DNA of 64,000 nt, taken from Desulfobacterales bacterium (GTDB lineage: Bacteria > Desulfobacterota > Desulfobacteria > Desulfobacterales > SpSt-501). The DNA is taken from positions 119 to 64,118 of the forward strand of contig JBGSTS010000020.1 in NCBI GenBank assembly GCA_041736435.1. Reading direction: 5' to 3'. Below, in pieces: positions 31,894-64,000 of the stretch. Every line of letters begins with the position of its first letter. Within the stretch, counting starts at the first letter, position 1. The translations under genes were made by a program, and so were the position numbers. The notes below the pieces were generated by a model, which was not told where the DNA came from, searched no databases, and saw nothing but the letters and a program-made list of their open reading frames with translations.

Positions 31894-31956
31894 GTATCAA
31901 TTTCCTCTTGTGCCCCGAAGGCCCCGCATGTCATCGCAATCCCCGGCGTTGATCGG

Positions 31957-35831: not shown

Positions 35832-35852
35832 TTTTTCTCTCTCCCTCCGAAA

Positions 35853-39040: not shown

Positions 39041-39110
39041 CGGGTCATGCCCCCCAATCAGCGTTCATTTAGCTTCAATCTTTATGCTATTACATCCAGG
39101 CTAGCGGCGT

Positions 39111-39137
39111 GTGAGTAAAAGGTTAGGTTTCGGTTAT
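39111..39137 (-). promoter_or_regulatory. Candidate Pho box array (phoU promoter)
   Basis: The plus strand has GTGAG (39111), GTTAG (39122) and GTTAT (39133). On the minus strand that is ATAAC-N6-CTAAC-N6-CTCAC. The period is 11 bp and the array is about 70-95 nt upstream of the phoU ATG. Confidence 0.5.
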
Positions 39138-39224
39138 CCATATCATATCCGAGGGCACTGCAAAATGCCCGATTTCTGCATGGGTTGCCGGCTTCACCAT
39201 CTTGCGGCAAACGCCTCACCATAA

Positions 39225-39262
39225 ATAATCAATATTTAGTGGTTGTCTAACATCGGGCTAAC
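39225..39262 (+). promoter_or_regulatory. Candidate Pho box array (phoH side)
   Basis: ATAAT (39225), TTAGT (39236), CTAAC (39247) and CTAAC (39258), all exactly 11 bp apart. Confidence 0.5.
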
Positions 39263-39280
39263 TACATGTTGTTAATTACC

Positions 39281-39309
39281 TTGACCTCTGGGGCTTTTTT
39301 ATTTACACT
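39281..39309 (+). promoter_or_regulatory. Candidate sigma70-type promoter downstream of the phoH-side array
   Basis: TTGACC (39281-39286), a 17-nt spacer, then TACACT (39304-39309). Confidence 0.3.
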
Positions 39310-39554
39310 ATTTCCGGATACGACGATGCCCATAGCCGATCTCCATGAGCTAAACCGGCCACCCGCCTGTCCCTTCCACCGGATCTGCTCCAACGATCAT
39401 TCGCTTTCTGTTGCCCGTTCGCCGCTGTTGCCGCAATATGCTTGCCCTGAAATTTACCGGAGTTTCATGGGTTCCGCCCCTACCCAACTCGGAAGGGGAG
39501 GGTTTTCCTCAATCGCCCCGCCGCTGACCGCGCCGGGGCTTTCTACGTCCAGAG

Positions 39555-40958: not shown

Positions 40959-42833
40959 TCAGCCTGCGTGGTGCCTCTGCGTTTCAGGCACAGGGGGCGG
41001 GGATCCGCTTTCGGCGCAGGCCCCGTGGCAGGCCATCAGCGCGGCGACCCCCGCTTCCCCCATGTAGCGTTCAAGGGTCTTGCGGTCGGTCTGAAGCAGG
41101 TCCACCACGATCAGTCCGTCCATGACGTTGCCGAAATCCCGGTCGATGTTGAACCCCAGCAGCTGCCCGCCCAAGTTGAGATAGTGCCGCAACAGAACCG
41201 GGACCTCGCGCTTCTGGAATTCGATGTCGGCAATCACCGCACAAACCTCCTTGAAATCCTGTAAATGGAGCGTTTTACCGGATTGGGCGCATCCGGGTAT
41301 GCGGATGGGGGCGATTTTGGCCGGCCGCCGTGGCCGGACCATGAGAGAGAGGTCCTTCGCCTGACTGTGCTGAAGCAGGGTAGTTGCGATCAGGCGCCGC
41401 GATAAATCGCTGTAGTCGCGGCTGATGCTGACCGGTCCGAAGAGCCGCCGATACTGAGGTTGGCGGGCGATGAAACTGCCGATGCCTTTCCACAGGAGCA
41501 GCAGGGGGGCATAGGAGCGCTGATATTCCGGACGGACGAAGGAGCGGCCCAGCTCCAGCGCGGACCCCAGCCTTTTAAAAAATTGCGCCTGGGTGTGAAA
41601 CAGGGTAGTGGTGTAGAGGCCTTTCCGGCCGAATCGACTCAACAAAATATCGGTTCGGCCGAGGCGGTAGGCACCGACAATTTCGGATGCGGCCTCGTTC
41701 CAGACAAACAGATGCAGGTAGTGAGGATCGAATCGGTCCAGGTCTAAAGGCTTCCCGGTCCCCTCGGACGCCGCCCGGAACGAGAGTTCCCGCAGACGGC
41801 CGATCTCTTGCAATAGATTGGGTATTTGCCCAGCCTCAGCCTGCCACACGGAAAAATCACCGCTCTGCGCCAGGCGCTGCCAGGCAGGCAGGCGCTCGAT
41901 CTCGCGGCGACAGACATCCGGGTCCTGGGGGATAGCCAGCGGCTGCTCCCTGGGCACGTGAGGCATTTTTTCGATCGCGGCCGTCCGGATCCCGGCTGAC
42001 GGTTTGAATCCCAGAATGAGGGTCCTCCAACGCAGGTACTCCACCCGTCGTGAATCATCGGCGTAGCGTTGAATCCAGCGAAACGGAATGGGGGCCCCGA
42101 TTTTGACCTCGATCGTCTTGCGCTCCTTGTTGATCAACTCCCTCGCCAGCAGAGCCGTACGCAGGCGCGGGTGGATCATGCCGGCGGCATGGAAGACAAT
42201 GCCGTTGCGGCCTTTCACGAAAACCGGAAGAACCGCAGCCCGAGTCCTGCGGGCAATGAGGCCGGCGGCCGGGCTCCAGGCGCTGTCGGCAATCTCGCAG
42301 CTCGCTAATTTGAAATGCGAGACTTCACCGGCGGGAAAAACGAGAAGCATGCCTCCGTCGTTTACCCAGCGCAGGGCCGCCCGGATCGACCCGGTATTGC
42401 TGCGGGCCGATCCGGGCCGGTTGAACGGGTCGACCGGGATGGTCAGGCGTCGAAGCTGAGGGATGCGGTTCAGCATGAAGTTGGCCATGATTTTCAGATC
42501 CGGCCGAACGGACATCAGCAGATCGGCTAGGATAATCCCCTCGATCCCTCCGAAAGGGTGATTGGCAACCACCACCAAAGACCCCGTGCGGGGTATCTGA
42601 TCGATTTCATGCAGGCTGGGCTCGCAGCGAACACCCATTTCGGACAGCAAGGCGTGCATGAAGCGTTTCGGCTCCTTGACGTGGGCCACCCGATCATAAA
42701 GCATGGCGCACCGGGTGAGCCCAAGAACGTGCTCGATCGGCCGGAGCCCGCGGGCGGCCCATCGACTTGTTTTGGATTCAGGCAAATCCGGTAAAATCGA
42801 AAAAATGGGTTTGTGTGAAACAGTCGTCTCCAT
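40959..42833 (-). CDS. Bifunctional acyltransferase with a PlsC-type O-acyltransferase domain and an OlsB-like GNAT N-acyltransferase domain (OlsF-like aminolipid synthase)
   Basis: The N-terminal half has VVANHPFGGIEG and ...LLVFPAGEVSH... (lysophospholipid acyltransferase blocks). The C-terminal half has ...FRAASEGTGKPLDLDRFDPHYLHLFVWNEAASEIVGAYRLG..., the hemolysin/OlsB-like N-acyl-amino-acid synthase signature. Confidence 0.7.
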   Translation of the reverse strand: METTVSHKPIFSILPDLPESKTSRWAARGLRPIEHVLGLTRCAMLYDRVAHVKEPKRFMHALLSEMGVRCEPSLHEIDQIPRTGSLVVVANHPFGGIEGIILADLLMSVRPDLKIMANFMLNRIPQLRRLTIPVDPFNRPGSARSNTGSIRAALRWVNDGGMLLVFPAGEVSHFKLASCEIADSAWSPAAGLIARRTRAAVLPVFVKGRNGIVFHAAGMIHPRLRTALLARELINKERKTIEVKIGAPIPFRWIQRYADDSRRVEYLRWRTLILGFKPSAGIRTAAIEKMPHVPREQPLAIPQDPDVCRREIERLPAWQRLAQSGDFSVWQAEAGQIPNLLQEIGRLRELSFRAASEGTGKPLDLDRFDPHYLHLFVWNEAASEIVGAYRLGRTDILLSRFGRKGLYTTTLFHTQAQFFKRLGSALELGRSFVRPEYQRSYAPLLLLWKGIGSFIARQPQYRRLFGPVSISRDYSDLSRRLIATTLLQHSQAKDLSLMVRPRRPAKIAPIRIPGCAQSGKTLHLQDFKEVCAVIADIEFQKREVPVLLRHYLNLGGQLLGFNIDRDFGNVMDGLIVVDLLQTDRKTLERYMGEAGVAALMACHGACAESGSPPPVPETQRHHAG

Positions 42834-43051: not shown

Positions 43052-43078
43052 CTAACCGCAGGTTAACTTACAGCTAAC
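43052..43078 (+). promoter_or_regulatory. Candidate Pho box array (divergent OlsF-like / lysE intergenic region)
   Basis: CTAAC (43052), TTAAC (43063) and CTAAC (43074) at an 11-bp period. The last unit is 88 nt upstream of the lysE-family ATG. Confidence 0.55.
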
Positions 43079-43165
43079 GTGCCCCGGTCAGAGTCGGATG
43101 AGACGTGATCGGGGAACCGGCCGTTAAGGAAGCGCGCTGCGGCGCCGGCCGGTTCAAGGAGCGGA

Positions 43166-43810: not shown

Positions 43811-43848
43811 TTAGCGGTGTTTTAATCCGGGACTAACAGCATGTTGAT
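43811..43848 (+). promoter_or_regulatory. Candidate Pho box array (PHP-glycosyltransferase promoter)
   Basis: TTAGC (43811), TTAAT (43822), CTAAC (43833) and TTGAT (43844) at an 11-bp period. The array ends 50 nt upstream of the ATG at 43899. Confidence 0.5.
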
Positions 43849-43898: not shown

Positions 43899-45794
43899 AT
43901 GATGAAAGCGGACCTGCATGTGCATTCGCGGCACTCGACCCGGCCCTCCCAGTGGTTCCTGCAAAAGATCGGCTGCCCGGAAAGCTTTACCGACCCGCTG
44001 CAGCTCTACCACATTGCCCGGCGGCGGGGCATGACGCTGGTGACCATCACGGATCACAACAAGATCGACGGTGCCCTCGAGATCGCTCATCTTCCCGGGG
44101 CCTTCGTGAGCGAAGAGGTGACCGCCTATTTTCCCGAAGACGGCTGCAAGGTCCATGTGCTGGTCTACCGCATCACCGAGGCGCAGCACGCGGAGATCCA
44201 GAAAATCCGCACCGACGTTTACGACCTCCTCCGCTACCTAAAGGATGCGGCCATACCCTGTGCCCTGGCCCACCCGATGTATGCGGTCAACGATCGGTTG
44301 ACGGTGGCCCACATCGAAAAGCTCTTGCTGTTGTTCCGCAATTTCGAATTGAACGGCGACAGCAACCCGGAGTCCAACCGCAGCCTGGAGACGGTGCTGT
44401 CAGCCTTGACCCCGGCTGACATTGAGCGTCTGGCGAACACCCATGGCATCTCCCCGCTCTGGCCGGAACCCTGGCGCAAAAATCTGATCGGCGGCTCCGA
44501 CGACCACAGCTCGCTCAACATCTCCCGCAACTTCACCCAGGTGGAGGGCGCCGGGAGCGTCGATGCGTTCCTGGCCGGGATAGAGTCCGGGCAGGCACGG
44601 GTGGTCCAGCGGCCCTCCTCGCCGCAGGCCATGGCTCACAACCTCTACAGCATCGCCTACCAGTTTTATCGTCAGAAACTCGGGTTGAGCCGGGATGCAC
44701 CGCAGCATTTCCTGCTGCGCTTCATCGACCGGTGCCTGCGGCTAACGGACGGGTCTGAATCGGGGTTTCTGGCACGGCTGCATTTTCTGTGGCAATACCG
44801 CCGGATCCGCAAAATACAGGGCAGCATTCCCGGCCCCCTGGTGGAGCTCCTGCAGCAGGAGACGTCGCGGTTGCTGGAAGAGGATCCGGCGCTTTTCGAT
44901 CTGCCCGAGGCGGGCGACTGGATGTCCAAGCGGATGGAGGAGCGTTGGTTCGACTTCATGGACAGGATGTCCAACCGGATCCTGCTCGGATGCGCCAACC
45001 ATCTCCTGGGCCATGTGTCGGGGGCCAACCTGTTCAACATTTTTCAAACCATCGGCTCGGCCGGAGGGTTCTGCACGCTGCTGACCCCCTATGCGATGGC
45101 GTTTTCCCACTACAACCGCCAACGGCAGTTCAGCCAAGCCGTGTTGGAACGGTTTGGGCATGCCGTGCCTGACGATCCGACGCCATCGCAGGCGTGCGCT
45201 GTGTTTGCGGACACTCAAGCCGACGGGCAGGAATCGATCCGAACGCATGCTCGCAGCCATCCGGGGCGGCGGTGCGCGCTGTTGACCTGCGATACCGGGG
45301 TTGAATCCGAGGCCGTCAAGCGTTTTGAGCCCATCGGGGTCTACGAATTCGACGAGCAGCCGCACTACCGGCTGGTCTACCCGCCGGTCCTGGAGATGCT
45401 CGACTACTGCTACACCGGCCGATTCAGCCGTGTGCACCTGGCCACCACCGGCCCGGCCGGTTTGGCCGGCCTGTTCATCGGTCGCTTTCTGAAGCTGCCG
45501 CTGGAGGCCGACTTCAGCGACCTGCTGCCGCGCATGGCGCGGGAGATCACCCGGGATGGGTTCATCGAGGAGCTCTGCTGGCGCTACACGGTGTGGTTCT
45601 ACAGCCAGATGAATACGGTTTACGTCTCCTCCGGAGCCCAGCTGGCCGAGCTGGCCCAGCACGGTATTCCCCGCGCAAAACTCAGGGTGGCACCGCAGCC
45701 GACGGATTCGGCATCGCTCTGGGGCGATGCCCGCACAGCCCCCGCCGGTGCTGCCTCCCGGCGGCTGCGGCGGCAGGCCGGCGCCCGCATCTGA
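43899..45794 (+). CDS. PHP-domain phosphoesterase fused to a GT-B (GT4-like) glycosyltransferase N-terminal half. The C-terminal nucleotide-sugar half appears to be missing.
   Basis: MKADLHVHSRHS...VTITDHNKIDG is a PHP metal-binding motif. The C-terminal ~200 aa resembles a GT4 N-domain (...RVHLATTGPAGLAGL...VYVSSGAQLAELAQHGIPRAKLRV). The ORF then ends in low-complexity sequence, where RGVD...EX7E would be expected. Confidence 0.65.
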   Translation: MMKADLHVHSRHSTRPSQWFLQKIGCPESFTDPLQLYHIARRRGMTLVTITDHNKIDGALEIAHLPGAFVSEEVTAYFPEDGCKVHVLVYRITEAQHAEIQKIRTDVYDLLRYLKDAAIPCALAHPMYAVNDRLTVAHIEKLLLLFRNFELNGDSNPESNRSLETVLSALTPADIERLANTHGISPLWPEPWRKNLIGGSDDHSSLNISRNFTQVEGAGSVDAFLAGIESGQARVVQRPSSPQAMAHNLYSIAYQFYRQKLGLSRDAPQHFLLRFIDRCLRLTDGSESGFLARLHFLWQYRRIRKIQGSIPGPLVELLQQETSRLLEEDPALFDLPEAGDWMSKRMEERWFDFMDRMSNRILLGCANHLLGHVSGANLFNIFQTIGSAGGFCTLLTPYAMAFSHYNRQRQFSQAVLERFGHAVPDDPTPSQACAVFADTQADGQESIRTHARSHPGRRCALLTCDTGVESEAVKRFEPIGVYEFDEQPHYRLVYPPVLEMLDYCYTGRFSRVHLATTGPAGLAGLFIGRFLKLPLEADFSDLLPRMAREITRDGFIEELCWRYTVWFYSQMNTVYVSSGAQLAELAQHGIPRAKLRVAPQPTDSASLWGDARTAPAGAASRRLRRQAGARI

Positions 45795-45851: not shown

Positions 45852-45878
45852 ATAACCCTGCCTTAACCGAGGGGTAAC
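45852..45878 (+). promoter_or_regulatory. Candidate Pho box array (PAP2/glycosyltransferase promoter)
   Basis: ATAAC (45852), TTAAC (45863, within CTTAACCG) and GTAAC (45874) at an 11-bp period. The array ends 40 nt upstream of the ATG at 45918. Confidence 0.55.
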
Positions 45879-45917
45879 GATGCGAGGGTATCATCGGCCC
45901 ATTCCAAGGAGAATCCT

Positions 45918-46459: not shown

Positions 46460-47506
46460 ATGAAGATTCTTTATGGAGTCCAAGGCACCGGCAACGGCCA
46501 CATCTCCCGCTCTCGCGAAGTCATCCGTTATCTGAAGGAAGATGGTCACGAGGTCCAGGTGATCGTCAGCGGCCGGGACCGGGCTTTGCTCTGGGATATG
46601 GAGATCTTCGAGCCATACACGGCGCTGCGGGGGCTCACCTTCGCCACCCATCGCGGCCGGATCCAACACCTGCGCACGGCGCGCCAGTTGAACCTGATCC
46701 GGTTCTACGTCGACATCCGCGCCTTCGATGCTCGTGGGTTCGATCTGGTCATCACCGACTACGAGCCGGCAACCGCGCGCATTGCCCGTCGCCATCGGCT
46801 GCCATCGATCGGGATCGGACACCAGTACGCCTTTTGCCACGACATTCCGGTCAAGGGCCAAAACCCTCTGGCGCGCTACATCCTGGATCACTTCGCGCCC
46901 GTGGATTATCCGATCGGACTGCACTGGCACCACTTCGAACAGCCGATCCTGCCGCCGGTGGTGCCGGAATTTTCTTCCCGGCCGGCGCCGGTTCCCGGAA
47001 AGATACTCGTCTATCTCCCGTTCGAGGAGCTTTCCGATATCCTGCGGCTGCTTGGCCCCTTCGATGCTCATGCGTTTTATATCTACCATCAGCTGCAGCA
47101 GCCCGAGGGCACGGGCCATTTGAACTTGAGGCCCTATTCGCGCACCGCCTTTCTCAACGACCTGACCGATTGCAGCGGGGTCATCACCAACGCCGGTTTC
47201 GAGCTGGTCAGCGAGGCTCTGGCACTCGGCAAAAAAATCCTGGTCAAACCGCTCACCGGGCAGATGGAGCAGCTCTCCAATGCGGCGGCGCTCGCCGAGC
47301 TGAACCTGGGGCTGACAATGAAGAGGCTTGACAGGGAGGAAGTGGACCGGTTTTTGGGAAAACCCACCTTAGTCCGGGCGCAATACCCAAACGTTGCCCG
47401 CATGATCGCCGATTGGATTCCTAAAGGGGACTGGGGGAGTCTGGCCGAGCTCTCTCGCGCAGCCTGGGCGCAGACTCACTATTCCGGAGGTTTCAGTTCG
47501 GGCTAA
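46460..47506 (+). CDS. GT-B glycosyltransferase (MurG/MJ1255-like)
   Basis: MKILYGVQGTGNGHISRS... is the glycine-rich N-terminal motif of this family. The ATG is 15 nt after the PAP2 stop. The ORF-track start at 46205 overlaps PAP2. Confidence 0.7.
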   Translation: MKILYGVQGTGNGHISRSREVIRYLKEDGHEVQVIVSGRDRALLWDMEIFEPYTALRGLTFATHRGRIQHLRTARQLNLIRFYVDIRAFDARGFDLVITDYEPATARIARRHRLPSIGIGHQYAFCHDIPVKGQNPLARYILDHFAPVDYPIGLHWHHFEQPILPPVVPEFSSRPAPVPGKILVYLPFEELSDILRLLGPFDAHAFYIYHQLQQPEGTGHLNLRPYSRTAFLNDLTDCSGVITNAGFELVSEALALGKKILVKPLTGQMEQLSNAAALAELNLGLTMKRLDREEVDRFLGKPTLVRAQYPNVARMIADWIPKGDWGSLAELSRAAWAQTHYSGGFSSG

Positions 47507-49905
47507 CTCGCTTCGATGATGACTCGTCCAGCTCCCCCATCGATCGTCACCTGGGAGCCCTCTGGAATCAAGCGGGTCGCCTGGCGGATTCCGACCACGG
47601 AGGGGATCCCCAGCTCCCGCGCCACGATGGAGCAGTGGTTCAGCAGCCCGCCCTCTTCCATTACGAGGCCTCCCACCAGGCTGAGAATGGGTGTCCAGCC
47701 CGGATCCGTATGCCGGGCCACGACGACATCCCCCTGGTGGATGGCGGCCGTCGCAGGATCCACGACGATAACCGCTCTGCCAGTGGCTCGCCCCGGACTG
47801 GTTCCGATCCCGTGCAGGACCGTGCCATCGAGAGTGAGATCATATTCCGGCCGGCCCTCAACCCAAAACGTGCAGGGATCCGCCGGTTTACTAAACTGTT
47901 CGCGTCGCTTACCGGCGATCCGGTTCGCTGCCATAGGCGGCAGGCGACCGGCCGCCAACCGTTCGATCTCATCGGGGGTTAGGAAAAGGGTCAGATCCCC
48001 CAAGCCGAAGTGCCGTCCGAGCGAAAGCAGGTCCGCGCGAATATGGAACAGGACTTCATCCAGCAGAAATCGTAGCTCCTCCCGCAGGTCAAGAAACCGG
48101 CAGGTCAGGCGAGCAACCAACTTCAGTGCCATCCGTGGCACCGATAGAAGCGCCCCTCGCGGCCTTTCCGCCGCAGGACGGCATTCGGGCGTTATCCTCG
48201 TGGTCCCGCCATGGCGCACCAGCGACTGGAGAATTGCGATCACCTCTTCCGGGGCTTCGATCCAGCGCTTCATTGCGAGCGTGCGGTGGCGTGAGCGGCA
48301 ACCGTAGCGGCCGAGGAAGGTGTCGAGCGCTTTCTGAAGATCGGTTGGCAGCGAACGGGCCAGGCTCTCCGCAGGCTCGTTTCGAAAGCGTTCGCCGGCG
48401 TCGCGGTCGGCGGCGATGCGTTCTCCCATGGCACGAAACCACTGCTCGATCCGCAGGGTGACGTTGTTGCCGCGCCGGCTGAGGAGCTCTAAAAATTCGG
48501 TCCCAGGCAGTTTCATCAGGTCCATGGCCCACCAGCGAAGTACCCAGGTGAAAAACGTTGCGTGGGAATAGGGCCACTGGTTGTTTTCCTGGATCAAGGC
48601 CAGAGTTTCCAAATCGGTGCGCAGGATCTCGATCAAGTCGGAAGCGGTCGCTTCGCTCGCTGCAGGCCGGGCCGGCGTTCGCATGCGGGCACGCAGGCGC
48701 TCGATGTTACGCGGCGCGCGCCGCAGGCACACCCAGGGCAGAAGGCCCGGTTCGCTCAGGGGAAGGCGGGCCAGGCAGAAGCCGATGCGCAAAAGCGTCC
48801 ACGCAGGGGGGGTAGGGATATCCTCCAGTTGCGAGTCCGTCGGCAGCAGGGAGTGAAACTCTTTGAACCGCAACCGGCGCGGCATGAGGGCGATGAGGCG
48901 CCGAATCCCTTCGCAGTTGACATAGAGATAGCCGTTGACGACCGCCAGGGCCGGCACGACCGGAATGATTCCGACCCGCCGCGCGATGGCCGACAAGTCA
49001 AAGCGCGGGGCATGCGCCAGCATGACCTCGGCCATGAACGGGGTCAGCCGGTCGGCCCAGAGATCGTCAGCGATCTTGCGGGTCCAGCTCCCGGCCGGCG
49101 GCAGAACGCCCGCGCCGGCCAGGGAGGTGATCGGCCGCACCTGGAGCAGCCAGAGCCTCAAACGCCGGTCAACCGCCCACTCCATATCGAGCGCGGCACC
49201 ATCGTAGACTTGCTCCAGTTGCTGCAGCAGTCGCGCCACCTCTTCCCAGGGAGTGTCCCGCGCCACTTTCTGACGTGACCGCCGCCTCCCTTCGAGCTCG
49301 ACTCGCCCGCTCCGGAGAAAGGCCGCGCGGCATGGTGTGCGGTGACCGCTGACCAACCCGTCGCCGTGGCCCCGGACGGCCTCGATGATCATTTCATCCC
49401 TGCCGGGAGCGAGCGGGTTGCGGCTGAAGGCCACGCCGGCAACGTGAGACTCCACCATGCGCTGGATGACGACGGCCATCCGTGGGGTTTCAACGTCGCT
49501 TCCCCGAACGTTGAGGGCCTTCACGTAACTGCCCACTATTTCGGAGCTGGCGCTGGCCCAGCAGGCTTCGATACGCTCCAGAAGCCCATCTTCGGTGTCG
49601 ATCTCAAGGAAGCTCTGATATTGACCGGCAAAACTCCGGCGATGGCCGTCCTCGCGGGTAGCCGAGGAGCGGATGGAAACGCCTCTGCTCAGGCTGAGGC
49701 GGCGGGCGGCCTCCAGGACCTCGTCGCGCAGCCCGTCCGGCCAGGAGCCGGTGGCCAGGTAAAGGCGGTGGGCCGCAGTGCTGACGGCAATCGCCTCGGG
49801 CACTGGAAACCCCCGCCGGGCGGCATCGGCCAAGGTGGAAAACTTTCGGCCGACCACACTCGGATCAAGTGCATGGTCATCCTGAAATCCGATGAGGTAG
49901 GTCAT
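47503..49905 (-). CDS. PEP-utilising enzyme family protein (N-terminal PPDK_N ATP-grasp, C-terminal phosphohistidine swivel domain)
   Basis: The N-terminus has ...VGRKFSTLADAARRGFPVPEAIAVS.... The C-terminus has ...GIGTSPGRATGRAVIV...ARHTDPGWTPILSLVGGLVMEEGGLLNHCSIVARELGIPSVVG. There is no PEP/pyruvate TIM-barrel domain. Confidence 0.8.
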   Translation of the reverse strand: MTYLIGFQDDHALDPSVVGRKFSTLADAARRGFPVPEAIAVSTAAHRLYLATGSWPDGLRDEVLEAARRLSLSRGVSIRSSATREDGHRRSFAGQYQSFLEIDTEDGLLERIEACWASASSEIVGSYVKALNVRGSDVETPRMAVVIQRMVESHVAGVAFSRNPLAPGRDEMIIEAVRGHGDGLVSGHRTPCRAAFLRSGRVELEGRRRSRQKVARDTPWEEVARLLQQLEQVYDGAALDMEWAVDRRLRLWLLQVRPITSLAGAGVLPPAGSWTRKIADDLWADRLTPFMAEVMLAHAPRFDLSAIARRVGIIPVVPALAVVNGYLYVNCEGIRRLIALMPRRLRFKEFHSLLPTDSQLEDIPTPPAWTLLRIGFCLARLPLSEPGLLPWVCLRRAPRNIERLRARMRTPARPAASEATASDLIEILRTDLETLALIQENNQWPYSHATFFTWVLRWWAMDLMKLPGTEFLELLSRRGNNVTLRIEQWFRAMGERIAADRDAGERFRNEPAESLARSLPTDLQKALDTFLGRYGCRSRHRTLAMKRWIEAPEEVIAILQSLVRHGGTTRITPECRPAAERPRGALLSVPRMALKLVARLTCRFLDLREELRFLLDEVLFHIRADLLSLGRHFGLGDLTLFLTPDEIERLAAGRLPPMAANRIAGKRREQFSKPADPCTFWVEGRPEYDLTLDGTVLHGIGTSPGRATGRAVIVVDPATAAIHQGDVVVARHTDPGWTPILSLVGGLVMEEGGLLNHCSIVARELGIPSVVGIRQATRLIPEGSQVTIDGGAGRVIIEAS

Positions 49906-50159: not shown

Positions 50160-51332
50160 TTAAGGGCTGCGACGCTGTCGGGTGCGCCGGGGAGAGCGGT
50201 CAAGCATTGCCAAGACCTTGACCGCGACCTCATACGCCGCCTGCGGCCGGGCGATGCGCCGGGCATTGGCCTTGAGCCGAGCCAGCCGACGCGGCGAAGA
50301 GAGCAGCGCATTCAATTTATAGTTCAGGGTCGCCAGATGGCCGACCTTTACCGCCGCACCGCTTTCCAACAGGAAATCGGCGTTGCGGCTCTCCTGGCCG
50401 GGGATCGGATTGACGATCAGCATCGCACCCCCGCAGCATAAAACCTCCGCCGATGTCAATCCGCCGGGTTTGGAAATCACCACGTCCGCCGCGGCCATGA
50501 GCTCATCGATCGCCTCCGTGAAGCCGACGATCGTGACACGGTGGTGCGGTGCGGCGGGTGCCCGGTTCAACCGCTCCCGGAGCGCATCATTGCGCCCGCA
50601 CACCACCACAATCTCCACGGCGACGTTCAGTGCCAGCAAGCTGAAAAAAATCTGTTCGATCGGACCGACCCCGAACCCGCCTGAAAGCAGGAGCAGGATC
50701 GGCCGCTCCCCCTTAAGCCCCTGGGTCCTGAGGCAGCGGAGTCGGTCTTTGCGTCTGCTGAACACCGGGTGAACGGGAATGCCGCTGACCGTGATATCCC
50801 GCGCTGGTACCCCCCAATAGGCGAGATTCGCCGCGCTCTCCTCCGTGGCCGCGAAGTAGTGATCGCATGGGCGTTGGACCCACATCCGGTGCGTCATGAA
50901 ATCGGTAGTGACGGTCACCTGCCGCACATTGATTTTTCCCGCGGTCCGCAGCGAACCGATGATCTCCGCCGGTAGAAAATGAGTGTTGACCACCACGTCC
51001 CAGCTCTCTGATTCCAAAAGCTTCAGGAAAGGTTTGAGATTCAAGCGCTGCAGGGCAATCCGAAATCGATCCGCCTCCAGCTCCTGAGGGCGGTCCAAGA
51101 GGTCGTAGACATAGCCGAGCAAGTGGGGGGCCCGGCGGGCAACATCGAGGTAGCCCTTGCCGTATATTCTGCGGAAGGCGGAGCTGGCCAGGCTCAGGAC
51201 GTCCACATTCTTCAGCATCAGGCCGGGGGCAATTTCCTGCAGGGCCAGCTCGATGGCTTCCGCCGCACGCACGTGGCCGGCCCCGACGGATGCCGAAAGG
51301 ATGAGAATGCGTTTGGGAATTTGTTGGCGCAA
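50160..51332 (-). CDS. GT28 diacylglycerol glycosyltransferase (MGDG-synthase / UgtP-like)
   Basis: ...ILILSASVGAGHVRAAEAI...FRRIYGKGYLDVARRAPHLLGYVYD... is an MGDG_synth N-domain. ...ISKPGGLTSAEVLCCGGAMLIVNPIPGQESRNADFL is a GT28 C-domain. Confidence 0.8.
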   Translation of the reverse strand: MRQQIPKRILILSASVGAGHVRAAEAIELALQEIAPGLMLKNVDVLSLASSAFRRIYGKGYLDVARRAPHLLGYVYDLLDRPQELEADRFRIALQRLNLKPFLKLLESESWDVVVNTHFLPAEIIGSLRTAGKINVRQVTVTTDFMTHRMWVQRPCDHYFAATEESAANLAYWGVPARDITVSGIPVHPVFSRRKDRLRCLRTQGLKGERPILLLLSGGFGVGPIEQIFFSLLALNVAVEIVVVCGRNDALRERLNRAPAAPHHRVTIVGFTEAIDELMAAADVVISKPGGLTSAEVLCCGGAMLIVNPIPGQESRNADFLLESGAAVKVGHLATLNYKLNALLSSPRRLARLKANARRIARPQAAYEVAVKVLAMLDRSPRRTRQRRSP

Positions 51333-52835: not shown

Positions 52836-52862
52836 CTAACCCGAGGCTAGTATAATCCTAAC
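52836..52862 (+). promoter_or_regulatory. Candidate Pho box array (2-aminoethylphosphonate operon promoter)
   Basis: CTAAC (52836), CTAGT (52847) and CTAAC (52858) at an 11-bp period, about 140 nt upstream of the phnS ATG. Confidence 0.55.
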
Positions 52863-53003
52863 AGAAGCGCGCGAGGCTCGCTTCACATTGCCTGTTCTTC
52901 TTGAGGTGAACGGGAGTGTCAGGTGACGGTGCAGCCTGGTATGCGCGTGTCGGCGATCGACACGCGATCTTTTTAATGTTGTTCAGCGAAAGGAGATCCA
53001 CCC

Positions 53004-58098: not shown

Positions 58099-59235
58099 AT
58101 GGAATTCCCGGAACTGCCCGAAAATCCCTACCTGCTCCTCACCCCGGGGCCCTTGACCACTACGGCGAGCGTCAAAGCCGTGATGCTGCGCGACTGGTGC
58201 ACCTGGGACGAGGATTACAACCGGCTCGTCCAGGCGATCCGCCGCGAGCTTACGGCACTGGCCACGGCCGAGCCGGGTTTCACCACCGTACTGATGCAGG
58301 GCAGCGGCACCTTCGGGGTGGAAGCGGTTGTGACCACGGCCGTACCGGAGGGGGGCAAGCTGTTGGTGCTCGCCAACGGCGCCTACGGCCGCCGGATCGC
58401 CCACATCGCGCAGCGTGGCCGCATCGCGGTCCAGGTTCTGGACAGCGGTGAAACCTCCCCGCCGGATATCGACCGGATGTCGGCCGTCCTTCAGAAAGAG
58501 CCGTCCATCACTCACGTGGCGGTTGTCCACTGTGAAACCACCACCGGCATGCTGAACCCGCTCGAGGCCATCGGCCGCGTGGTCAAACCGCTCGACCGGG
58601 TCTTGATCGTGGATGCCATGAGCAGCTTCGGCGGCATCCCCCTGGATGCGGTCGCCATTGGAGCGGATTATCTCATCAGCAGCGCCAACAAATGCATCCA
58701 GGGGGTGCCGGGCTTCTCCTTCGTGGTGGCCCGCCGGCAGGAGCTTGAAAAAACAAAGGGCCGTGCCCGCTCGCTTAGCCTGGACCTATACGATCAGTGG
58801 GCGACCATGGAGAACCACCCCGGCAAGTGGCGCTTCACCTCGCCCACCCATGTGGTGCACGCCTTTTATCAGGCCCTCCAAGAGCTCAGGGCCGAAGGCG
58901 GTGTCGCTGCCCGCAATGCGCGCTATCGAAAAAACCGGGATTCCCTGGTCGACGGCATGCAGGCCATGGGTTTTACGCCGCTGCTGTCGCCTGCCTTTCG
59001 CTCCCCTATTATCACGGCGTTTCACAGCCCAGCGAACCCGGCTTATGATTTCAGGAGATTCTACGACCTGCTGAAAAAGCAGGGGTTTGTGATCTACCCC
59101 GGAAAAGTCACCGAGCTCGATACATTTCGCATCGGCACCATCGGCGATGTTCATCCCGCGGACATCGAGCGTCTTCTAAAGGCGGTCGATGCTTCCATGT
59201 ACTGGAAACAATCTCGTTATTCCCCCGGCAAATGA
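58099..59235 (+). CDS. phnW: 2-aminoethylphosphonate--pyruvate transaminase
   Basis: ...[32 protein letters not shown]... and ...[16 protein letters not shown]... (PLP lysine). It is a class-V aminotransferase. Confidence 0.9.
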
Positions 59236-59310
59236 ATTCATCTTTGACTTCTTCCGGCTTTTAACTCCAAAGGGCTCACTTCGGCTAGTAGGCCCTTTGC
59301 CTTGGAACCG

Positions 59311-59348
59311 CTAACTATTTACTAATGCAAACTTAATGACCGGCTAGT
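59311..59348 (+). promoter_or_regulatory. Candidate Pho box array (DUF5132-like gene promoter)
   Basis: CTAAC (59311), CTAAT (59322), TTAAT (59333) and CTAGT (59344), all exactly 11 bp apart. Confidence 0.55.
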
Positions 59349-59530
59349 TTAAGTCGGGTGTAATCTGCAATTTTCAATAGGTAATTAAATGACTTTTCTT
59401 CTCGACACGGCGGTATCTTGCTTGTTAGTTTTGCTGCAAATGCCGGGTGTTTTCCGGCGCCTGAGCGTCGAAGCATGGATCGAACCATGAAGGGCGGCCC
59501 GGTCTGAACGGGTCGAGCAAGGAGGGAGTC

Positions 59531-59818
59531 ATGTTCGGTATCACCAACGGAATCCGCTTCGGGGGTGCGGTGGCCATCGGCGCCGCAGCCGTACTGCTGG
59601 CACCGGTCGTGTTGCCGATCGTTGCCGCTGTGTTGAAACCGGTCGCCAAGTCGGTCATCAAGGGCGGCATCATGGCCTTCGAGGGTGCGAAGGTGGCTTT
59701 GGCCGAAACCCAGGAAACGGTCGAGGACATCGTGGCCGAGGCCAAGGCCGAAATAAAGGCCGAAATATCCGAAAGCCGCAAGGTCCCGGCCAAGACCACC
59801 AAAAAGCAGGCTGCCTGA
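59531..59818 (+). CDS. Small membrane protein (DUF5132-like)
   Basis: 95 aa. It has an N-terminal hydrophobic hairpin (FGGAVAIGAAAVLLAPVVLPIVAAVL) and a charged C-terminal helix (AEAKAEIKAEISE). AAGGAGGGAG lies upstream. The family assignment is from memory. Confidence 0.55.
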   Translation: MFGITNGIRFGGAVAIGAAAVLLAPVVLPIVAAVLKPVAKSVIKGGIMAFEGAKVALAETQETVEDIVAEAKAEIKAEISESRKVPAKTTKKQAA

Positions 59819-59828
59819 TCCGCAGGCG

Positions 59829-60350
59829 GTGCACGGGATCTTTATGCCGGAAGTGCCCGAGGCCTTTATCGCCCATCACTCCCCCAATCGGCTGAGGATT
59901 CGAATCCCCTCCCGGCGGGGGGACTCGGCTTTCTTCGCCTCGGTGCAGGAGGCCTATGCCCGGAAAGGTGAGCAGCCGGAGGCGAACCCGCATACGGCGA
60001 GTCTGCTCTTTGTCGGCAAAGCCGCTGAGGGCGAGGCGGTTGCCGACCTCGGGCGCGAGCAGGGTCTTTTCGAGCTTCGAATCGGAACCCCACCCCATCG
60101 GCCCCTCATGCACGAGGCGGTCAAGCCGGTGGCCGGTCTCAACCGCTCCATTCAGCAGGTGACGGGCGGCAGGATTGATCTTCCCAGCGGCTTCTTCCTG
60201 ATGCTGCTGGGGTTCGGCATCTACGAAATTCTCCGCGGCCGCTTCTCCACTCCACCGTGGTACACCGCGTTCTGGTATGCGTTCGGACTTGTTTCGATGT
60301 ACGTGATCGAAAAGGAAATCCGGGCCATCCCCGGCCATGAACACGACTGA
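59829..60350 (+). CDS. HMA2-like (cysteine-less heavy-metal-associated fold) domain protein with two C-terminal TM helices
   Basis: ...HHSPNRLRIRIPSRRGDSAFFASVQEAY...HTASLLFVG... resembles the GRLR(V/I)R-type HMA2 signature. The C-terminus is hydrophobic. The start may be the ATG at 59844. Confidence 0.5.
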   Translation: MHGIFMPEVPEAFIAHHSPNRLRIRIPSRRGDSAFFASVQEAYARKGEQPEANPHTASLLFVGKAAEGEAVADLGREQGLFELRIGTPPHRPLMHEAVKPVAGLNRSIQQVTGGRIDLPSGFFLMLLGFGIYEILRGRFSTPPWYTAFWYAFGLVSMYVIEKEIRAIPGHEHD

Positions 60351-60416
60351 CGGTTTCCACCGTCGCCGCCCCTGAGACTGCGCGTTTAGGGGCCCGGCTC
60401 TATGGCAGCCGAGCCT

Positions 60417-60454
60417 TTAACCGACTTCTAACGATTTCCGAACACCCTCATAAC
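60417..60454 (+). promoter_or_regulatory. Candidate Pho box array (P-type ATPase promoter)
   Basis: TTAAC (60417), CTAAC (60428), CGAAC (60439) and ATAAC (60450) at an 11-bp period. The array ends about 100 nt upstream of the ATG at 60558. Confidence 0.55.
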
Positions 60455-60557
60455 CATTCCCGGGGATTCTGAACAACGGCGTACATCTTGGCAGCGAGGG
60501 CATGAAGCAAGCTCCTTATCCACACTGTCCGACGCTGCGGTTCGCAGCGGAGCGTTG

Positions 60558-63500
60558 ATGATTCAATCGATTCACACCCAGGTAGAGGGCCGGGCCCGTT
60601 TCAAGATCGACGGGCTGTTCGGTTCGGAGATGCTCAAGCGGGTCCTTGAACAGAGGCTCTCCCGCGAAGGGGAGATTTACTCGGTATCGGCCAGCATCCT
60701 CACCGGCAATATCCTGGTCAATTTCAACTCCAACAACGACCACCACACCATCCGGTTTCTGATCGAAGAGATCCTGGTGGAAATCCACCAAAAGGGATTG
60801 CCGCCGGCTGCAGCCTTCGAGCTGGAGCCTGAATCGGCGGCGAAACGCTCGCCGGCCCGGGCCTTGCCGGTGGAGACCCTCAAACGCTTCTTGTCCCCGG
60901 AGTCGGAGGGTGCGGCGCCACTCGACAAGCCCTGGCATACGCTGGAGGCCCCCTTGGCCGCCTCCATCCTGCGCACAGACGCCCGCGCGGGGCTTTACGC
61001 GAGTGAAGCCGCCGAGCGGCTGAAGGCTTACGGTCCCAACCTCCTGCCCAAGCCCGAGCCGCGCTCAAAAGCCGAAATATTTTTCCAGCAGTTGAACTCG
61101 CTGCCGGTGCTGCTGCTGGGGGCTGCGGCCGGCATCTCGGTTCTGACCGGGGGCATCCTCGATGCGGCCGTCATCGGCGGCGTCGTGCTGGCCAATGCCG
61201 TCATCGGCTACATCACGGAGAGCGGCGCCGAAAAAACCATGGAGTCCCTCAAGGAGCTGGTCCACCCGACGGCGGAAGTCATCCGGGAGGAACGCTCCGT
61301 CCACCTGGCCGTGGAGGAGGTGACGGTCGGGGACCTCCTGGTGTTGAAACCCGGGACCTACGTAGCCGCCGACAGCCGGATCGTGTCTGCCGATCGGCTG
61401 AGCATCGACGAGTCCATGCTGACCGGCGAGAGCATGCCGGTGCACAAGGAAGCCAAGAGGCTCAAGCACGAGAACACGCCGCTGGCCGATCGCGCCAACA
61501 TGGTTTACATGGGAACGCTCGTGACCGGCGGGCAGGGCCTCGCGCTGGTGGTGGCCGTCGGCCGCTTCACCCAGGTCGGCATGCTCCAGGCGATGCTGGC
61601 CGACACTCAAACCCCGCCGACGCCGATCGAGCTTCAGCTGGCACAGATGGGGAACCAGCTGGTGGCGGCCTGCGGGGCGATTTGCGGGGTGGTGTTCGGG
61701 ATCGGTTTTTTACGCAGCTACGGCCTGGTCCAGATGCTGCAGATGTCGATTTCGCTGGCGGCTTCGGCCGTGCCCGAGGGGCTTCCGGCTGCGGCGACGA
61801 TCAACTTCGCCATGGGCATTACCGACCTGCGCCGGCATGGGGTGCTCGTTCGCAAGCTGCAGGCGGTTGAGACCCTGGGGGCCGTCCAGACCATCTGCCT
61901 GGACAAGACCGGGACCATCACCGAGAATCGCATGACGTTGACCGAAATCCTGGCCGGCCGCACGCGCTATGCCGTGGTGAAGAATATGCTGGAGCCCTTG
62001 CCGGGGGGGCGCGATGTCCTCGCCGTCGGCGAAATCCGGCACCTGCTGATCGTTTGTGCCCTCTGCAACGAAATCAAGATCACGGTGGACAAGGAAAGCG
62101 GCGAAATCGACCTCTTCGGCTCCTCCACGGAGACGGCCCTGATGCGGGTGGCGGCTGCGACCGGAATCGATATCGTCGGCCTGCAGGAGGATTTTCGCTT
62201 CGTGGGCCTGCGCCTGCGGTCGGAAAACCGGCTCTACATGAGCAGCCTGCACTCATGCCCCTCGGAGGACTGCCGCTACATCTTCACCAAGGGCAGCCCG
62301 CACGACGTCCTCGATCTGTGCGACCGCGAAATGGTAAAGGGTCGGGTGAAGGCCCTCACCGAGGAGCGCCGGCAGGAGATCCACATCGAAAACGACCGCA
62401 TGGCCGGCCGTGGCCTGCGGGTATTGGGCTTCGCCTTCAATCGCTTCACAATGAAGGCGGAGATCGACGAGTCCGCCCCGATGGTCTGGCTGGGGCTGGC
62501 CGGTATGGCCGACCCCATCCGGCCGGGGGTGGCCGAGTTGATCGCGGTCTTCCAGCGGGCGGGCATCGAAACCGTGATGATCACGGGCGACCAGAGCACT
62601 ACGGCCTATGCCGTGGCCCGCGAACTGAACCTCGGCGGCGAAAAGCCCCTCAAGATCCTGGACTCGGCCGAGCTCACCTCGCTTGACTCCGAGCGGCTCC
62701 AGGCGCTCGCCAAGAACGTGCACGTCTACTCCCGGGTCAGCCCGGCGCACAAGCTGCGGATCGTTCAGGCCCTGCAGGATGCCGGCCGCGTCGTGGCCAT
62801 GACCGGAGACGGGATCAACGACGGACCCGCCTTGAAAGCGGCCAATATCGGCATCGCCATGGGCGAGTCCGGCACCGATGTGGCCCGCGAGGTGGCGGAC
62901 ATCATCATCGCGGGCGACAAACTGGAGCAGTTGGCTCAGGCCCTGGGCGGCGGGCGTACGACCTACGGGAACATCCGCAAATCGGTGCACTTTTTCCTCT
63001 CCACCAACCTGACCGAGATCATGGTGATGTTCGCCTGCATGGCCCTCGGCCTGGGGTTTCCGCTGACCGTCATGCAGCTGCTCTGGATCAACATCATCTC
63101 GGACATCTTCCCGGGGCTGGCCCTCTCGCGCGAAGAGCCGGAGCCGGGCCTCATGACCCAGCCGCCGCGGCCCGCCGGCGCTCCGCTCTTTTCGGGCCGG
63201 GACTTCCGCGTCATGGCCGTGGAGTCCGGCATCATCAGCACCGGCGCCCTATCCGCCTATCTCTACGGGATCGGCCGCTATGGCCGCGGGGCCCGGGCCG
63301 GCTCGCTGGCCTTCCAGGCGCTTGTCTTCGGCCAGCTGCTGCATGCCTACAGCTGCCGCACGGAGAAGAGGAGCATCTTCGATGCCAAGCGCCCGCCGAG
63401 GAACCCCTATCTCGACCTGGCGATCGGAGGCTCCCTTGCGCTGCAGGTGCTCACCCTGGTACTCCCCGGACTGCGGGGGGTTCTCGGGGCCGCCGCGCCG

Positions 63501-63608
63501 ACCCTCATCGATGTTGCCGTCATCGGTGCCTGCGCGCTGGGGCCTTTCATCGCCAACGAAACGCGCAAACTGGCTCAACCTTATATCTCTGGTGAGGTGA
63601 CCACATGA
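60558..63608 (+). CDS. P2-type (SERCA/PMCA-like) cation-translocating P-type ATPase with an N-terminal HMA2-like domain
   Basis: It has TGES, PEGLP (TM4), [20 protein letters not shown] and [14 protein letters not shown]5 has STNLTE and TM6 has NIISD, which mirror the SERCA Ca-site residues. The N-terminus has ...[10 protein letters not shown]...ILVNFN with no CxxC. Confidence 0.9.
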
Positions 63609-64000
63609 TTTTCACATCCGAATCCGTTACCGACGGCCATCCGGACAAGATGTGCGACCAGGTCAGCGACTGCATCGTCGACCATTTTCTGAAGCAGGAC
63701 CCCTTCTCCCGCGTGCGGGCCGAGTGCGCGGTGTCGAGCGCCATCATCTTCATCGCCGTGCGCTACGCCTCCGAGGCGAAGGTGGACTTCTCCTACCTGG
63801 CGCGCAAGGTGATCCAGAAGATCGGCTACGACCAGCCGGACTTCAACGCCAAGATCTGCAGCATCCTGTCGGCGCCCCAGGAGCTGCCGCTGAACATGGC
63901 TCATCGCTTCGATGAGACCCAGCTCTCGGACGAGGAGATCGACAAAGTGGCCGCCAAGAACCAGGTGACGTTGTTCGGTTTCGCCTGCGACCAGACCCCG
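63605..64000 (+). CDS. metK: S-adenosylmethionine synthetase-like protein (divergent MetK). The 5' part runs off the right edge.
   Basis: My own translation gives [41 protein letters not shown]...KNQVTLFGFACDQTP. The ATG overlaps the ATPase stop (ATGA). It is not in the ORF track because there is no stop codon inside the window. Confidence 0.8.
   Translation, partial: MIFTSESVTDGHPDKMCDQVSDCIVDHFLKQDPFSRVRAECAVSSAIIFIAVRYASEAKVDFSYLARKVIQKIGYDQPDFNAKICSILSAPQELPLNMAHRFDETQLSDEEIDKVAAKNQVTLFGFACDQTP

Follow-up and report, generated by a model that had tools for sequence, protein, structure and literature searches.

A P2A-type ATPase operon with CoBaHMA and DUF5132 proteins and Pho-box-like repeats in a Desulfobacterales genome

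The closest described counterparts of the system considered here, a four-gene operon that encodes a P-type ATPase and small membrane proteins at the end of a 64,000-nucleotide stretch of a Desulfobacterales genome (contig JBGSTS010000020.1; this whole stretch is hereafter the window), are the ferrosome genes of Desulfovibrio magneticus and the calcyanin gene neighborhood of Microcystis. Of the fezABC products, FezA is small, with a GxxxG motif and a hydrophobic N-terminus, the P1B-6 ATPase FezB has an RxR/RxRxR motif at its N-terminus, and FezC carries a heavy-metal-associated (HMA) annotation, the same R-rich motif and two transmembrane (TM) helices, its membrane part being DUF4405-like. The three gene products are enriched on ferrosomes, and cells deleted for fezB and fezC failed to form these organelles unless fezABC was supplied in trans (Grant et al., bioRxiv 10.1101/2020.01.10.902569). 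The CoBaHMA domain was first described at the N-terminus of calcyanin, a marker of intracellular amorphous calcium carbonate in cyanobacteria, and is recognized by an extra strand, b0, with a conserved His, by basic residues in b1/b2 and by the lack of CxxC (PMC8890360); binding of anionic lipids has been hypothesized for it in the literature. In Microcystis aeruginosa PCC 7806 the calcyanin gene ccyA is flanked by two DUF5132 genes, a CoBaHMA-DUF454 gene, a stand-alone CoBaHMA gene and cax, and one of the DUF5132 genes, the CoBaHMA-DUF454 gene and cax are co-expressed with it (bioRxiv 10.1101/2024.07.07.602159).

The operon in the window brings together a DUF5132 protein, a protein in which CoBaHMA is joined to a two-helix membrane hairpin, a P2A-type ATPase with a CoBaHMA head of its own and a divergent MetK-like protein, and 11-bp-phased repeats stand both ahead of it and within it. 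The reading that we favor, with a probability of roughly 0.6 for the whole of it, is that these genes encode a PhoB-activated pump of the Ca2+ type, serving export or sequestration, together with dedicated CoBaHMA and DUF5132 partners.

The operon, its pump and the small membrane proteins

Gene content, protein families and conservation of the module were determined computationally. Downstream of phnW (58099-59235), four consecutive plus-strand genes occupy positions 59531-64000:

59531-59818, plus strand, DUF5132 protein of 95 amino acids (aa); Pfam DUF5132 (PF17195) at 47.9 bits against a cut-off of 25
59844-60350, plus strand, CoBaHMA-hairpin protein of 168 aa; an alternative GTG start at 59829 gives a 173-aa open reading frame (ORF)
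60558-63608, plus strand, P2A-type ATPase (the pump) of 1016 aa, assigned with Pfam and NCBIfam
63605-64000, plus strand, 5' part of a MetK-like gene, 392 aa when complete, truncated by the window end

The ATG at 59844 is the most likely true start of the hairpin gene, because homologues align from residue 8. The MetK-like ATG overlaps the TGA of the pump gene as ATGA, and the two genes are translationally coupled. A public contig with an identical pump (L001) reaches beyond the window and carries the complete 392-aa MetK-like gene (L001 4997-6175), past which lie, on the opposite strand, a 123-aa HMA_2 protein (MHYYCHHVPGRIRVKLP...) and then a 96-aa ORF. The initial annotation, made from the sequence of the window alone, had listed two small membrane proteins, a P-type ATPase and a MetK-like protein, and the ORF and Pfam results match that list. 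A search of 59150-60650 against Rfam at a permissive E-value returned sub-threshold noise only and no family for the leader, and a SAM (S-adenosylmethionine), Mg or Mn riboswitch ahead of the operon genes was rejected on this result.

The trio of DUF5132, CoBaHMA-hairpin and CoBaHMA-ATPase genes is present in 18 of the 19 non-redundant loci for which 5' flanking sequence was available, and DUF5132 is the first gene of the module in each of these 18; the exception is L022. The initial annotation had staked its proposal on the small proteins accompanying such ATPases elsewhere, as they do in these loci. Pump identity ranges from 92% to 54% across the loci, and that of the hairpin protein falls to 35% (in a Syntrophobacterales genome). 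The CoBaHMA/DUF5132/pump combination is thus a stable module of many Desulfobacterales and at least one Syntrophobacterales genome.

The pump contains the Pfam domains Cation_ATPase_N, E1-E2_ATPase, Hydrolase, Cation_ATPase and Cation_ATPase_C, with HMA_2 at residues 5-63, and the core P-type motifs CLDKTGTIT, LTGESMPV and PEGLP (in TM4), in a 10-TM layout with which the helices of its AlphaFold 2 (AF2) model are concordant. Its best solved relatives are human SPCA1 (7yag; 441 bits), LMCA1 of Listeria (6zhf; 429 bits) and SERCA1a (1iwo; 338 bits). These share with it a full-length match, the N/E pair in TM5, the N/S/D set in TM6 and the C-terminal TM7-10 domain, whereas the window pump has approximately 120 extra N-terminal residues (CoBaHMA and linker) and dedicated small partner genes. 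The view in the initial annotation that the ATPase is P2A-like, not P1B, agrees with these domains and matches, with PEGLP in TM4 and with the P1B models of NCBIfam, which lie far under their cut-offs; the only NCBIfam model that the pump passes is the generic TIGR01494. The motifs PEGLP, STNLTE and NIISD, picked out in the same annotation, are all present, and their residues E407 (PEGLP), N817/E820 (STNLTE) and N845/S848/D849 (NIISD) are invariant among 44 members of the pump family. The site II ligands E407, N845 and D849 align to PEGLP and NIIMD of SPCA1, and the TM5 and TM6 motifs align to what we take to be N768/E771 and N796/T799/D800 of SERCA. The protein looks like a calcium-type pump of a subfamily of its own. 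We judge the Ca-type assignment somewhat better than even, with Ca2+ (possibly Mn2+) as the most likely cargo, since the calcium-site side chains of SERCA and SPCA are kept on TM4, TM5 and TM6.

In the AF2 model of the pump (mean predicted local distance difference test score, pLDDT, 76.9), residues 1-80 form a b0-b1-a1-b2-b3-a2 domain (pLDDT 80-89; no clear b4), which a low-confidence linker (residues 85-118) tethers to the pump core. Within this N-terminal domain H6, G11, R12 and R14 are nearly invariant in the pump family, and the basic residues form a RARF motif. The 168-aa protein, which contains HHSPNRLRIRIP and no Cys, is modeled (pLDDT 81) in the order b0-b1-a1-b2-b3-a2-b4 followed by three helices, with elements E6-13, E16-20, H28-39, E46-48, E53-57, H58-72 and E77-79 at pLDDT of approximately 90. 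In an alignment of 40 members of its family R16 and R18 (RLRIRI) are invariant, and H11, NPxTGS and RGxxxxPPWYTAFWYAFG are near-invariant, the last being located in the membrane hairpin. The initial annotation had described the HMA-like domains as cysteine-less (small protein) and CxxC-less (ATPase), and both the domain of the 168-aa protein and the N-terminus of the pump lack Cys while carrying the His and RxR signature. The family names proposed there fared unequally against Pfam: DUF5132 is well above its threshold, as listed above, and HMA_2 (PF19991) scores 26.0 bits in the C-terminal half of the hairpin protein and 26.8 bits in the pump, both under the cut-off of 30, with a precomputed PF19991 assignment on most homologues and on the 123-aa neighbor. 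The 'HMA2' domains found here are of the CoBaHMA family.

The DUF5132 protein consists of an N-terminal hydrophobic segment rich in small residues and a long charged helix. NCBIfam gave nothing useful for either small protein; the DUF5132 protein weakly matches ATP-synthase b subunits, and such kinship was rejected, the matches being judged compositional. Small membrane proteins that regulate or stabilize P-type pumps include phospholamban, sarcolipin, FXYD, KdpF, MgtR and MgtS, only some of which, KdpF and MgtR for example, have their genes next to that of the pump. The proteins of the window have no sequence relationship to regulators of the phospholamban/KdpF type and differ from them in that the soluble CoBaHMA domain of one partner occurs fused to the pump as well; contact of the small proteins with the pump would be a prediction from this arrangement. 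The 123-aa protein beyond the window (L001 6264-6635, minus strand) is a canonical CoBaHMA domain (HHVPGRIRVKLP) with a hydrophobic C-terminal tail of tail-anchored appearance, and its gene is convergent to the operon in nearly all relatives, often with a Pho-type array of its own.

The complete MetK-like protein contains all three MetK Pfam domains and passes the equivalog model TIGR01034 (376.3 bits against 309.4), and matches solved bacterial MetKs at only approximately 300-320 bits. Aligned to the Thermus MetK structure (5h9u), GAGDQG is replaced by AAKNQV and HGGGAFSGKD by HSGDALSGKD. Twelve (12) pump-linked copies and all 120 of the closest homologues share the altered forms (A/V)KNQVT and HSG(D/K)ALSGKD; none of the 120 keeps GAGDQG, while GHPDK, GRK and SGKD..VDR are retained; an insertion of approximately seven residues lies near the C-terminus. 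By these sequence features the pump-coupled MetK-like protein belongs to a distinct subfamily. Its gene lies directly 3' of the pump gene in 17 of the 18 loci with 3' flanking sequence (exception L020), including L022, where an 870-aa pump that lacks both the CoBaHMA head and the small genes is still followed by the MetK-like gene and the convergent 123-aa CoBaHMA gene. As an indirect measure of linkage, 21 of the 120 best MetK-like clusters match one of the 120 best pump clusters in the size of the longest contig. Tied in this way to a P-type pump, the divergent MetK-like protein may point to an activity that is new to its very well-studied enzyme family.

Canonical MetK has an intrinsic tripolyphosphatase activity, and it is conceivable that the MetK-like protein, having lost efficient SAM synthesis, acts mainly as a tripolyphosphatase, as a polyphosphatase for short chains or as a regulator, the pump disposing of Ca2+/Mg2+ from consumed polyphosphate. 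Besides the loss of GAGDQG amid otherwise retained motifs and the persistence of the gene behind the pump even where the small proteins are missing, this proposal draws on the disappearance of polyphosphate granules from phosphate-limited Desulfovibrio alaskensis (PMC5193443). Given its equivalog score, the protein may instead simply be a divergent but active SAM synthetase, which might even be the only one of the genome. The proposal also depends on the assignment of MetK residues to half-reactions, which we presume rather than derive, and we regard it as improbable.

Among the neighbors of the module, an Na_Ca_ex exchanger gene directly follows the MetK-like gene in three relatives (L017, L019 and L021), a Get3/ArsA/TRC40-family ATPase gene and a small AF_1253-like gene recur (the Get3/TRC40-family ATPase in L002-L004), and a ParA-like ATPase is encoded nearby in L018. 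Six loci (L002, at 10688-13600, L003, L004, L005, L008 and L012) encode a second CoBaHMA-headed P2-like ATPase of 970-1011 aa, 34-38% identical to the first, in which TM4 reads IPSGL, the TM6 region reads WNNAAALALA and the Pfam C-terminal TM7-10 domain is missing. Its cation site is degenerate, since TM4 has no Glu and TM6 no Asp. Divergent from the module in two loci is the gene of a P1B ATPase of CPC type, 721 aa long and headed by a CoBaHMA-like domain (HRTPGRLRIAL; L019 3719-5884 and L021 4348-6513, both on the minus strand); as it adjoins the module, a single locus can encode both a P1B and a P2 pump with a CoBaHMA head.

Phased repeats and a probable Pho regulon

Two arrays of short repeats in 11-bp phase accompany the operon:

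59311-59354, plus strand, array 1, units CTAAC (59311), CTAAT (59322), TTAAT (59333) and the degenerate CTAGT (59344), 177 bp 5' of the DUF5132 start
60417-60460, plus strand, array 2 (internal), units TTAAC (60417), CTAAC (60428), the degenerate CGAAC (60439) and ATAAC (60450), 98 bp 5' of the pump start

The initial annotation had described both as four-unit NTAAY arrays; their presence and 11-bp phase stand, but each consists of three exact units and one with a single mismatch. In the window TAAC-N7-TAAC occurs seven times against 0.23 expected from dinucleotide-preserving shuffles, and three phased TAAY units occur three times against 0.00 expected. Shuffles of the whole window ignore the AT-richness of intergenic DNA, and other periods were therefore scanned as a control. 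Arrays with at least three of four units number five at period 11 and zero or one at each other period from 6 to 17, and with one mismatch allowed over three units approximately ten array loci are found at period 11 and none at periods 9, 10, 12 and 13. In 261 kb made up of the window and 13 related loci, 59 TAAY pairs occur at period 11 against 6-8 per other period, and 18 TAAC pairs against 0-3. Intergenic DNA is more AT-rich than the 61% GC average, and this might have produced such repeats by chance. That explanation is ruled out by the period controls, in which the signal is confined to period 11 within the same DNA, and the same position is kept in distant relatives; we give it next to no credence.

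Every array in the window is intergenic, in sense orientation and 5' of a gene. A Pho island of approximately 21 kb (38384-59235) precedes the operon, and most of its plus-strand operons, as well as phoU, bear 11-bp arrays:

39104-39268, both strands, divergent pair of arrays (phoU side on the minus strand from 39136 downwards; PIN-PhoH side on the plus strand, 39226-39268)
38384-39040, minus strand, phoU, with the array upstream
start 39555, plus strand, PIN-PhoH protein, with the array upstream
40959-42833, minus strand, OlsF-like bifunctional acyl/N-acyltransferase
43052-43084, plus strand, perfect three-unit array upstream of LysE (43166)
43812-43844, plus strand, array upstream of a GT4 glycosyltransferase (43899)
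43899-45794, plus strand, the 631-aa protein with a GT4 C-terminus, whose approximately 460 N-terminal residues have no Pfam match
45852-45884, plus strand, array upstream of PAP2 and a GT1 glycosyltransferase (45918)
47503-49905, minus strand, PPDK-like protein
50160-51332, minus strand, MGDG-synthase-like gene
52837-52869, plus strand, array CTAAC, CTAGT, CTAAC upstream of the phosphonate ABC transporter operon (solute-binding protein gene at 53004)

The phosphonate transporter operon ends in phnX-phnW and lies directly 5' of the DUF5132/pump operon. In phosphate-limited D. alaskensis ornithine lipids and glycolipids replace phospholipids (PMC5193443), and the lipid genes of the island (OlsF-like and MGDG-synthase-like) are a toolkit for that exchange. 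The array ahead of PIN-PhoH stands 287 bp 5' of the earliest possible start of that gene (gap 39269-39554), so that either the leader is long or a small gene there has escaped annotation.

The same motif marks phosphate genes in the relatives, where pstSCAB, a phosphonate ABC transporter, PhoH and alkaline phosphatase genes recur near the module. It stands ahead of pstSCAB in L024, where it reads CTAACAAAGTTCTAACATAATTTAAACA, ahead of PIN-PhoH, a PstS-like operon and an Exo_endo_phos gene in L018, and ahead of the phosphonate ABC transporter in L003; GT4 genes of relatives are likewise preceded by it. Array 1 recurs in L005, and strict or relaxed arrays lie 5' of DUF5132 in L017, L018, L019, L020, L021 and L024. 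The spacer between the hairpin and pump genes is otherwise unalignable between species, yet it contains three clean CTAAC/T units in L003, L007, L008 and L011, the pumps of which are 75-78% identical to the window pump; L005, L006 and L023 have a partial counterpart of array 2 in this spacer, and L002, L004, L012 and L014 have none. In ten loci (L002, L003, L005, L008, L012, L017, L018, L019, L023 and L024) an array also lies 5' of either the convergent gene for the 123-aa CoBaHMA protein or the gene of 96 aa.

Known Pho boxes vary in their unit: that of E. coli is CTGTCAT-N4-CTGTCAT, that of B. subtilis consists of TT(A/T/C)ACA repeats and the cyanobacterial one of CTTAACCT repeats. The PhoB box of D. 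vulgaris is an 11-bp-phased (c/t)GTnAC repeat, mapped by DNA affinity purification on arrays (DAP-chip) and by electrophoretic mobility shift assay (EMSA), with AGGTTACAGCATAGTTAC as an EMSA-validated site (PMC3333781, PMC6456213). The arrays of the window resemble it in the T-n-A-C shared by both units and in being 11-bp direct repeats of two to four units in sense orientation, and they resemble known Pho boxes in their position upstream of pst, phoU and phosphonate genes. The arrays are read as Pho-regulon sites because they precede pstSCAB, phoU, PhoH (twice), phosphonate transporters (twice), Exo_endo_phos and genes for phosphorus-free (P-free) lipids; the term 'Pho-like', under which they were first noted, is well borne out by those positions. 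Binding of PhoB is suggested by analogy with the validated D. vulgaris site, and from sites and synteny together the operon is probably Pho-controlled. The predicted Pho box of this lineage is thus a (C/T)TAAC unit, often followed by A, in 11-bp phase, a prediction that the analysis contributes beyond the operon itself.

The 11-bp direct-repeat layout is generic to the OmpR/PhoB family, and another member, sensing for example divalent cations or envelope stress, might bind the arrays instead of PhoB. Neither phoB nor phoR was found among the scanned ORFs of the window, several ORFs at approximately 13.5-24.5 kb and a few small ones lying outside the scan, and the first position of the unit departs from the D. 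vulgaris consensus. The genes behind the motif (pstSCAB, phoU, PhoH, phosphonate, Exo_endo_phos and P-free lipid genes) are nevertheless the signature of a Pho regulon, and we consider a different regulator very improbable.

Two elements downstream of array 1 have promoter-like features:

59359-59364, plus strand, candidate -10 hexamer TGTAAT, 5 bp past the fourth slot of array 1, read from the sequence
59378-59430, plus strand, promoter-like block with TAGGTAATTAAATGACTTTTCTTC, TCGACA (59402-59407), a 17-nt spacer and TTAGTT (59425-59430)

The first could have the geometry expected of a PhoB-dependent promoter. The second follows a pattern, T(C/T/G)GACA-N16/17-TTAGTT/TAATnn with TAGGTAAATTAATGACTTTT directly 5', that is kept in L002, L003, L005-L008, L011, L012 and L014. 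A generic scan of 59150-60650 for sigma-70 promoters and terminators found no promoter and no plus-strand terminator, and the promoter proposals accordingly rest on conservation across species. Within 59378-59530 a strongly conserved block (TAGGTAAATTAATGACTTTTYTTCTCGACA ... TTGTTAGTTTTGCTGCAA) and a leader of approximately 90 nt stand ahead of DUF5132 across species, and this stretch may serve as a promoter that includes a site for a second regulator, or else as a leader element.

Elsewhere in the window, a relaxed three-unit array (CTAAT, ATAAT, CAAT-type) lies on the minus strand at 24531-24563, between a 465-aa minus-strand ORF (23118-24515) and gyrB (24618). Gyrase genes are among the PhoB targets found by DAP-chip in D. 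vulgaris (PMC3333781, PMC6456213), and the array could also be a chance or -10-like sequence. A minus-strand Rnf-type complex (29203-37943; RnfC-, RnfD-, RnfG- and RnfE/A-like and ferredoxin-like proteins) beside a molybdopterin oxidoreductase is unrelated to the operon.

Proposed function and its alternatives

In the reading that we favor, the operon would be the last of a Pho island of approximately 26 kb in an organism that is a Desulfatibacillum-like representative of the Desulfobacterales. At low phosphate a PhoB-type response regulator would bind the (C/T)TAAC repeats head-to-tail and activate two promoters, one ahead of DUF5132 that drives all four genes and an internal one at array 2 that boosts the pump and the MetK-like gene. 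The pump would move Ca2+ (possibly Mn2+) out of the cytoplasm, its CoBaHMA domain hanging on a flexible tether, and the CoBaHMA-hairpin and DUF5132 proteins would be membrane partners that regulate, stabilize or localize it. DUF5132 and the CoBaHMA domains, of which the pump has one and the small proteins two or three, may thus act in regulation or localization, and the basic CoBaHMA face may read an anionic ligand, such as an anionic phospholipid or polyphosphate, whose level shifts in phosphate starvation. Removal of Ca2+/Mn2+ would be physiologically sensible at that time because polyphosphate and anionic phospholipids, which are major cation buffers, are then being consumed. What the MetK-like protein might contribute is a matter of conjecture from its sequence.

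Several observations weigh against this reading. In TM8 the pump has Gln926 at the position that we align to SERCA E908 and His929 near it, both invariant, TM6 reads DIFPG and not DG(L/P)PA, and the pump scores 558.7 bits against the PMR1-type model TIGR01522 (cut-off 798.3) and 462.1 bits against the SERCA-type model TIGR01116 (cut-off 703.4). The E908 equivalence was drawn through SPCA1, because pairwise alignment with the SERCA fragment failed to bridge the TM7-8 loop. The claim of the initial annotation that the pump matches the Ca-site residues of SERCA is therefore mostly right: it holds for the TM4, TM5 and TM6 ligands but probably not for the position equated with E908. Foldseek found no significant match to the 168-aa model in the Protein Data Bank (best E-value 0.078), and its CoBaHMA fold is for this reason assigned from topology and the sequence signature. 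The repeat unit (C/T)TAAC is without the leading G of the D. vulgaris GTnAC, and arrays near the module are absent or unrecognizable in L002, L012, L014 and L022. Array 1 sits 48-91 bp 5' of the conserved -35-like box; as the promoter-like block thus lies 3' of the array, the geometry of activation is uncertain. This reading also offers no account of the translational coupling of the MetK-like gene to the pump.

The first of these points bear on the nature of the cargo, and the operon may be built and regulated as outlined above with a pump that carries Mn2+, Mg2+, Fe2+ or a monovalent ion in place of Ca2+. SPCA-type pumps carry Mn2+ too, the pump falls under the equivalog cut-offs of all characterized subfamilies, Gln stands at the position aligned to E908, His929 is invariant and TM6 reads DIFPG. 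Such a cargo is unlikely in our estimation, given the TM4, TM5 and TM6 ligands, the Na_Ca_ex genes co-located in three relatives and the occurrence of the DUF5132/CoBaHMA pair with a Ca2+/H+ exchanger in Microcystis. When the literature was searched for a bacterial Ca-ATPase under Pho control, only fungal and protozoan papers came up, and the study of phosphate limitation in D. alaskensis (PMC5193443) makes no mention of such a pump.

We know of no demonstrated function for CoBaHMA domains or DUF5132. A link to the Pho regulon would allow CoBaHMA to be probed under a defined condition, low phosphate, and with a defined partner, a P2A pump, and suggests a tie between phosphate starvation and the handling of divalent cations in anaerobes that swap phospholipids and consume polyphosphate.

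Comparison with ferrosome and calcyanin gene clusters

A P2A pump with a CoBaHMA head, encoded with CoBaHMA-hairpin, DUF5132 and divergent MetK-like proteins under Pho boxes, has no description in the searched literature. The initial annotation had spoken of an undescribed module, which is apt for this specific combination but too broad for its components, for which the CoBaHMA family, the ccyA neighborhood and fezABC are precedents; the module is not without precedent, as fezABC parallels its three-part architecture and the ccyA neighborhood combines DUF5132, CoBaHMA-hairpin and Ca2+/H+ exchanger genes.

These precedents raise the possibility that the operon and its neighbors (the 123-aa CoBaHMA protein, the second CoBaHMA-ATPase, the Get3/ArsA- or ParA-type ATPase and Na_Ca_ex) build a lipid-bounded, fez-like compartment under Pho control that is loaded with Ca2+ and not Fe2+; a body of Ca-phosphate/polyphosphate or Ca-carbonate might be made or remodeled. 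The operon has three parts built like those of fezABC, with RLRIRI and RARF as its arginine-rich motifs, CoBaHMA heads calcyanin, the marker of amorphous Ca-carbonate, two DUF5132 genes, CoBaHMA-DUF454 and cax flank ccyA in Microcystis, and Get3/TRC40-family and ParA-like ATPases are encoded within the cluster. No such inclusion is known in these bacteria, however, the membrane part of FezC is DUF4405-like and unmatched by the 168-aa protein, and it would be counter-intuitive for phosphate-starved cells to switch on a mineral store that itself contains phosphate. Neither the 721-aa ATPase of L019 nor the second one of L002 was found to have the P1B-6 motifs D[YF]SCA and HNxxT, and a direct fez link through neighboring ATPases was rejected, the former being a CPC-type P1B ATPase with a CoBaHMA head and the latter having a degenerate site. 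A compartment of this kind is therefore doubtful in our view, including the part in it of the neighbors named. If it did exist, many Desulfobacterales would build or remodel a lipid-bounded, Ca-containing compartment under PhoB control, and CoBaHMA would be a shared targeting or assembly module linking ferrosomes, the amorphous Ca-carbonate inclusions of cyanobacteria and the window system.

For the favored reading of a Pho-activated pump with membrane partners, the same systems provide the nearest comparison. The likeness to fezABC, assessed from the published descriptions of the Fez proteins, lies in the same three-part design, likewise in Desulfobacterota, and extends to the second R-rich ATPase that larger fez clusters also carry; the R-rich motif of the Fez proteins looks like the b1 signature of CoBaHMA. 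The two differ in that the window pump is P2A (PEGLP, 10 TM helices, Ca-type ligands) and FezB is P1B-6 (D[YF]SCA, HNxxT, 6 TM helices), in gene order, in the MetK-like gene attached here and in the apparent control by phosphate instead of iron. With the ccyA neighborhood the window system shares the clustering of DUF5132, CoBaHMA fused to a helical hairpin, stand-alone CoBaHMA and a Ca2+ transporter, although in Microcystis the transporter is a Ca2+/H+ exchanger and not a P-type pump, the hairpin is DUF454-like, and neither a Pho link nor a MetK-like gene has been reported, while the window system has no calcyanin (GlyZip) gene. The architecture common to the fez genes and the calcyanin neighborhood suggests a shared logic of bacterial metal-storing compartments, to which the module described here may be compared.

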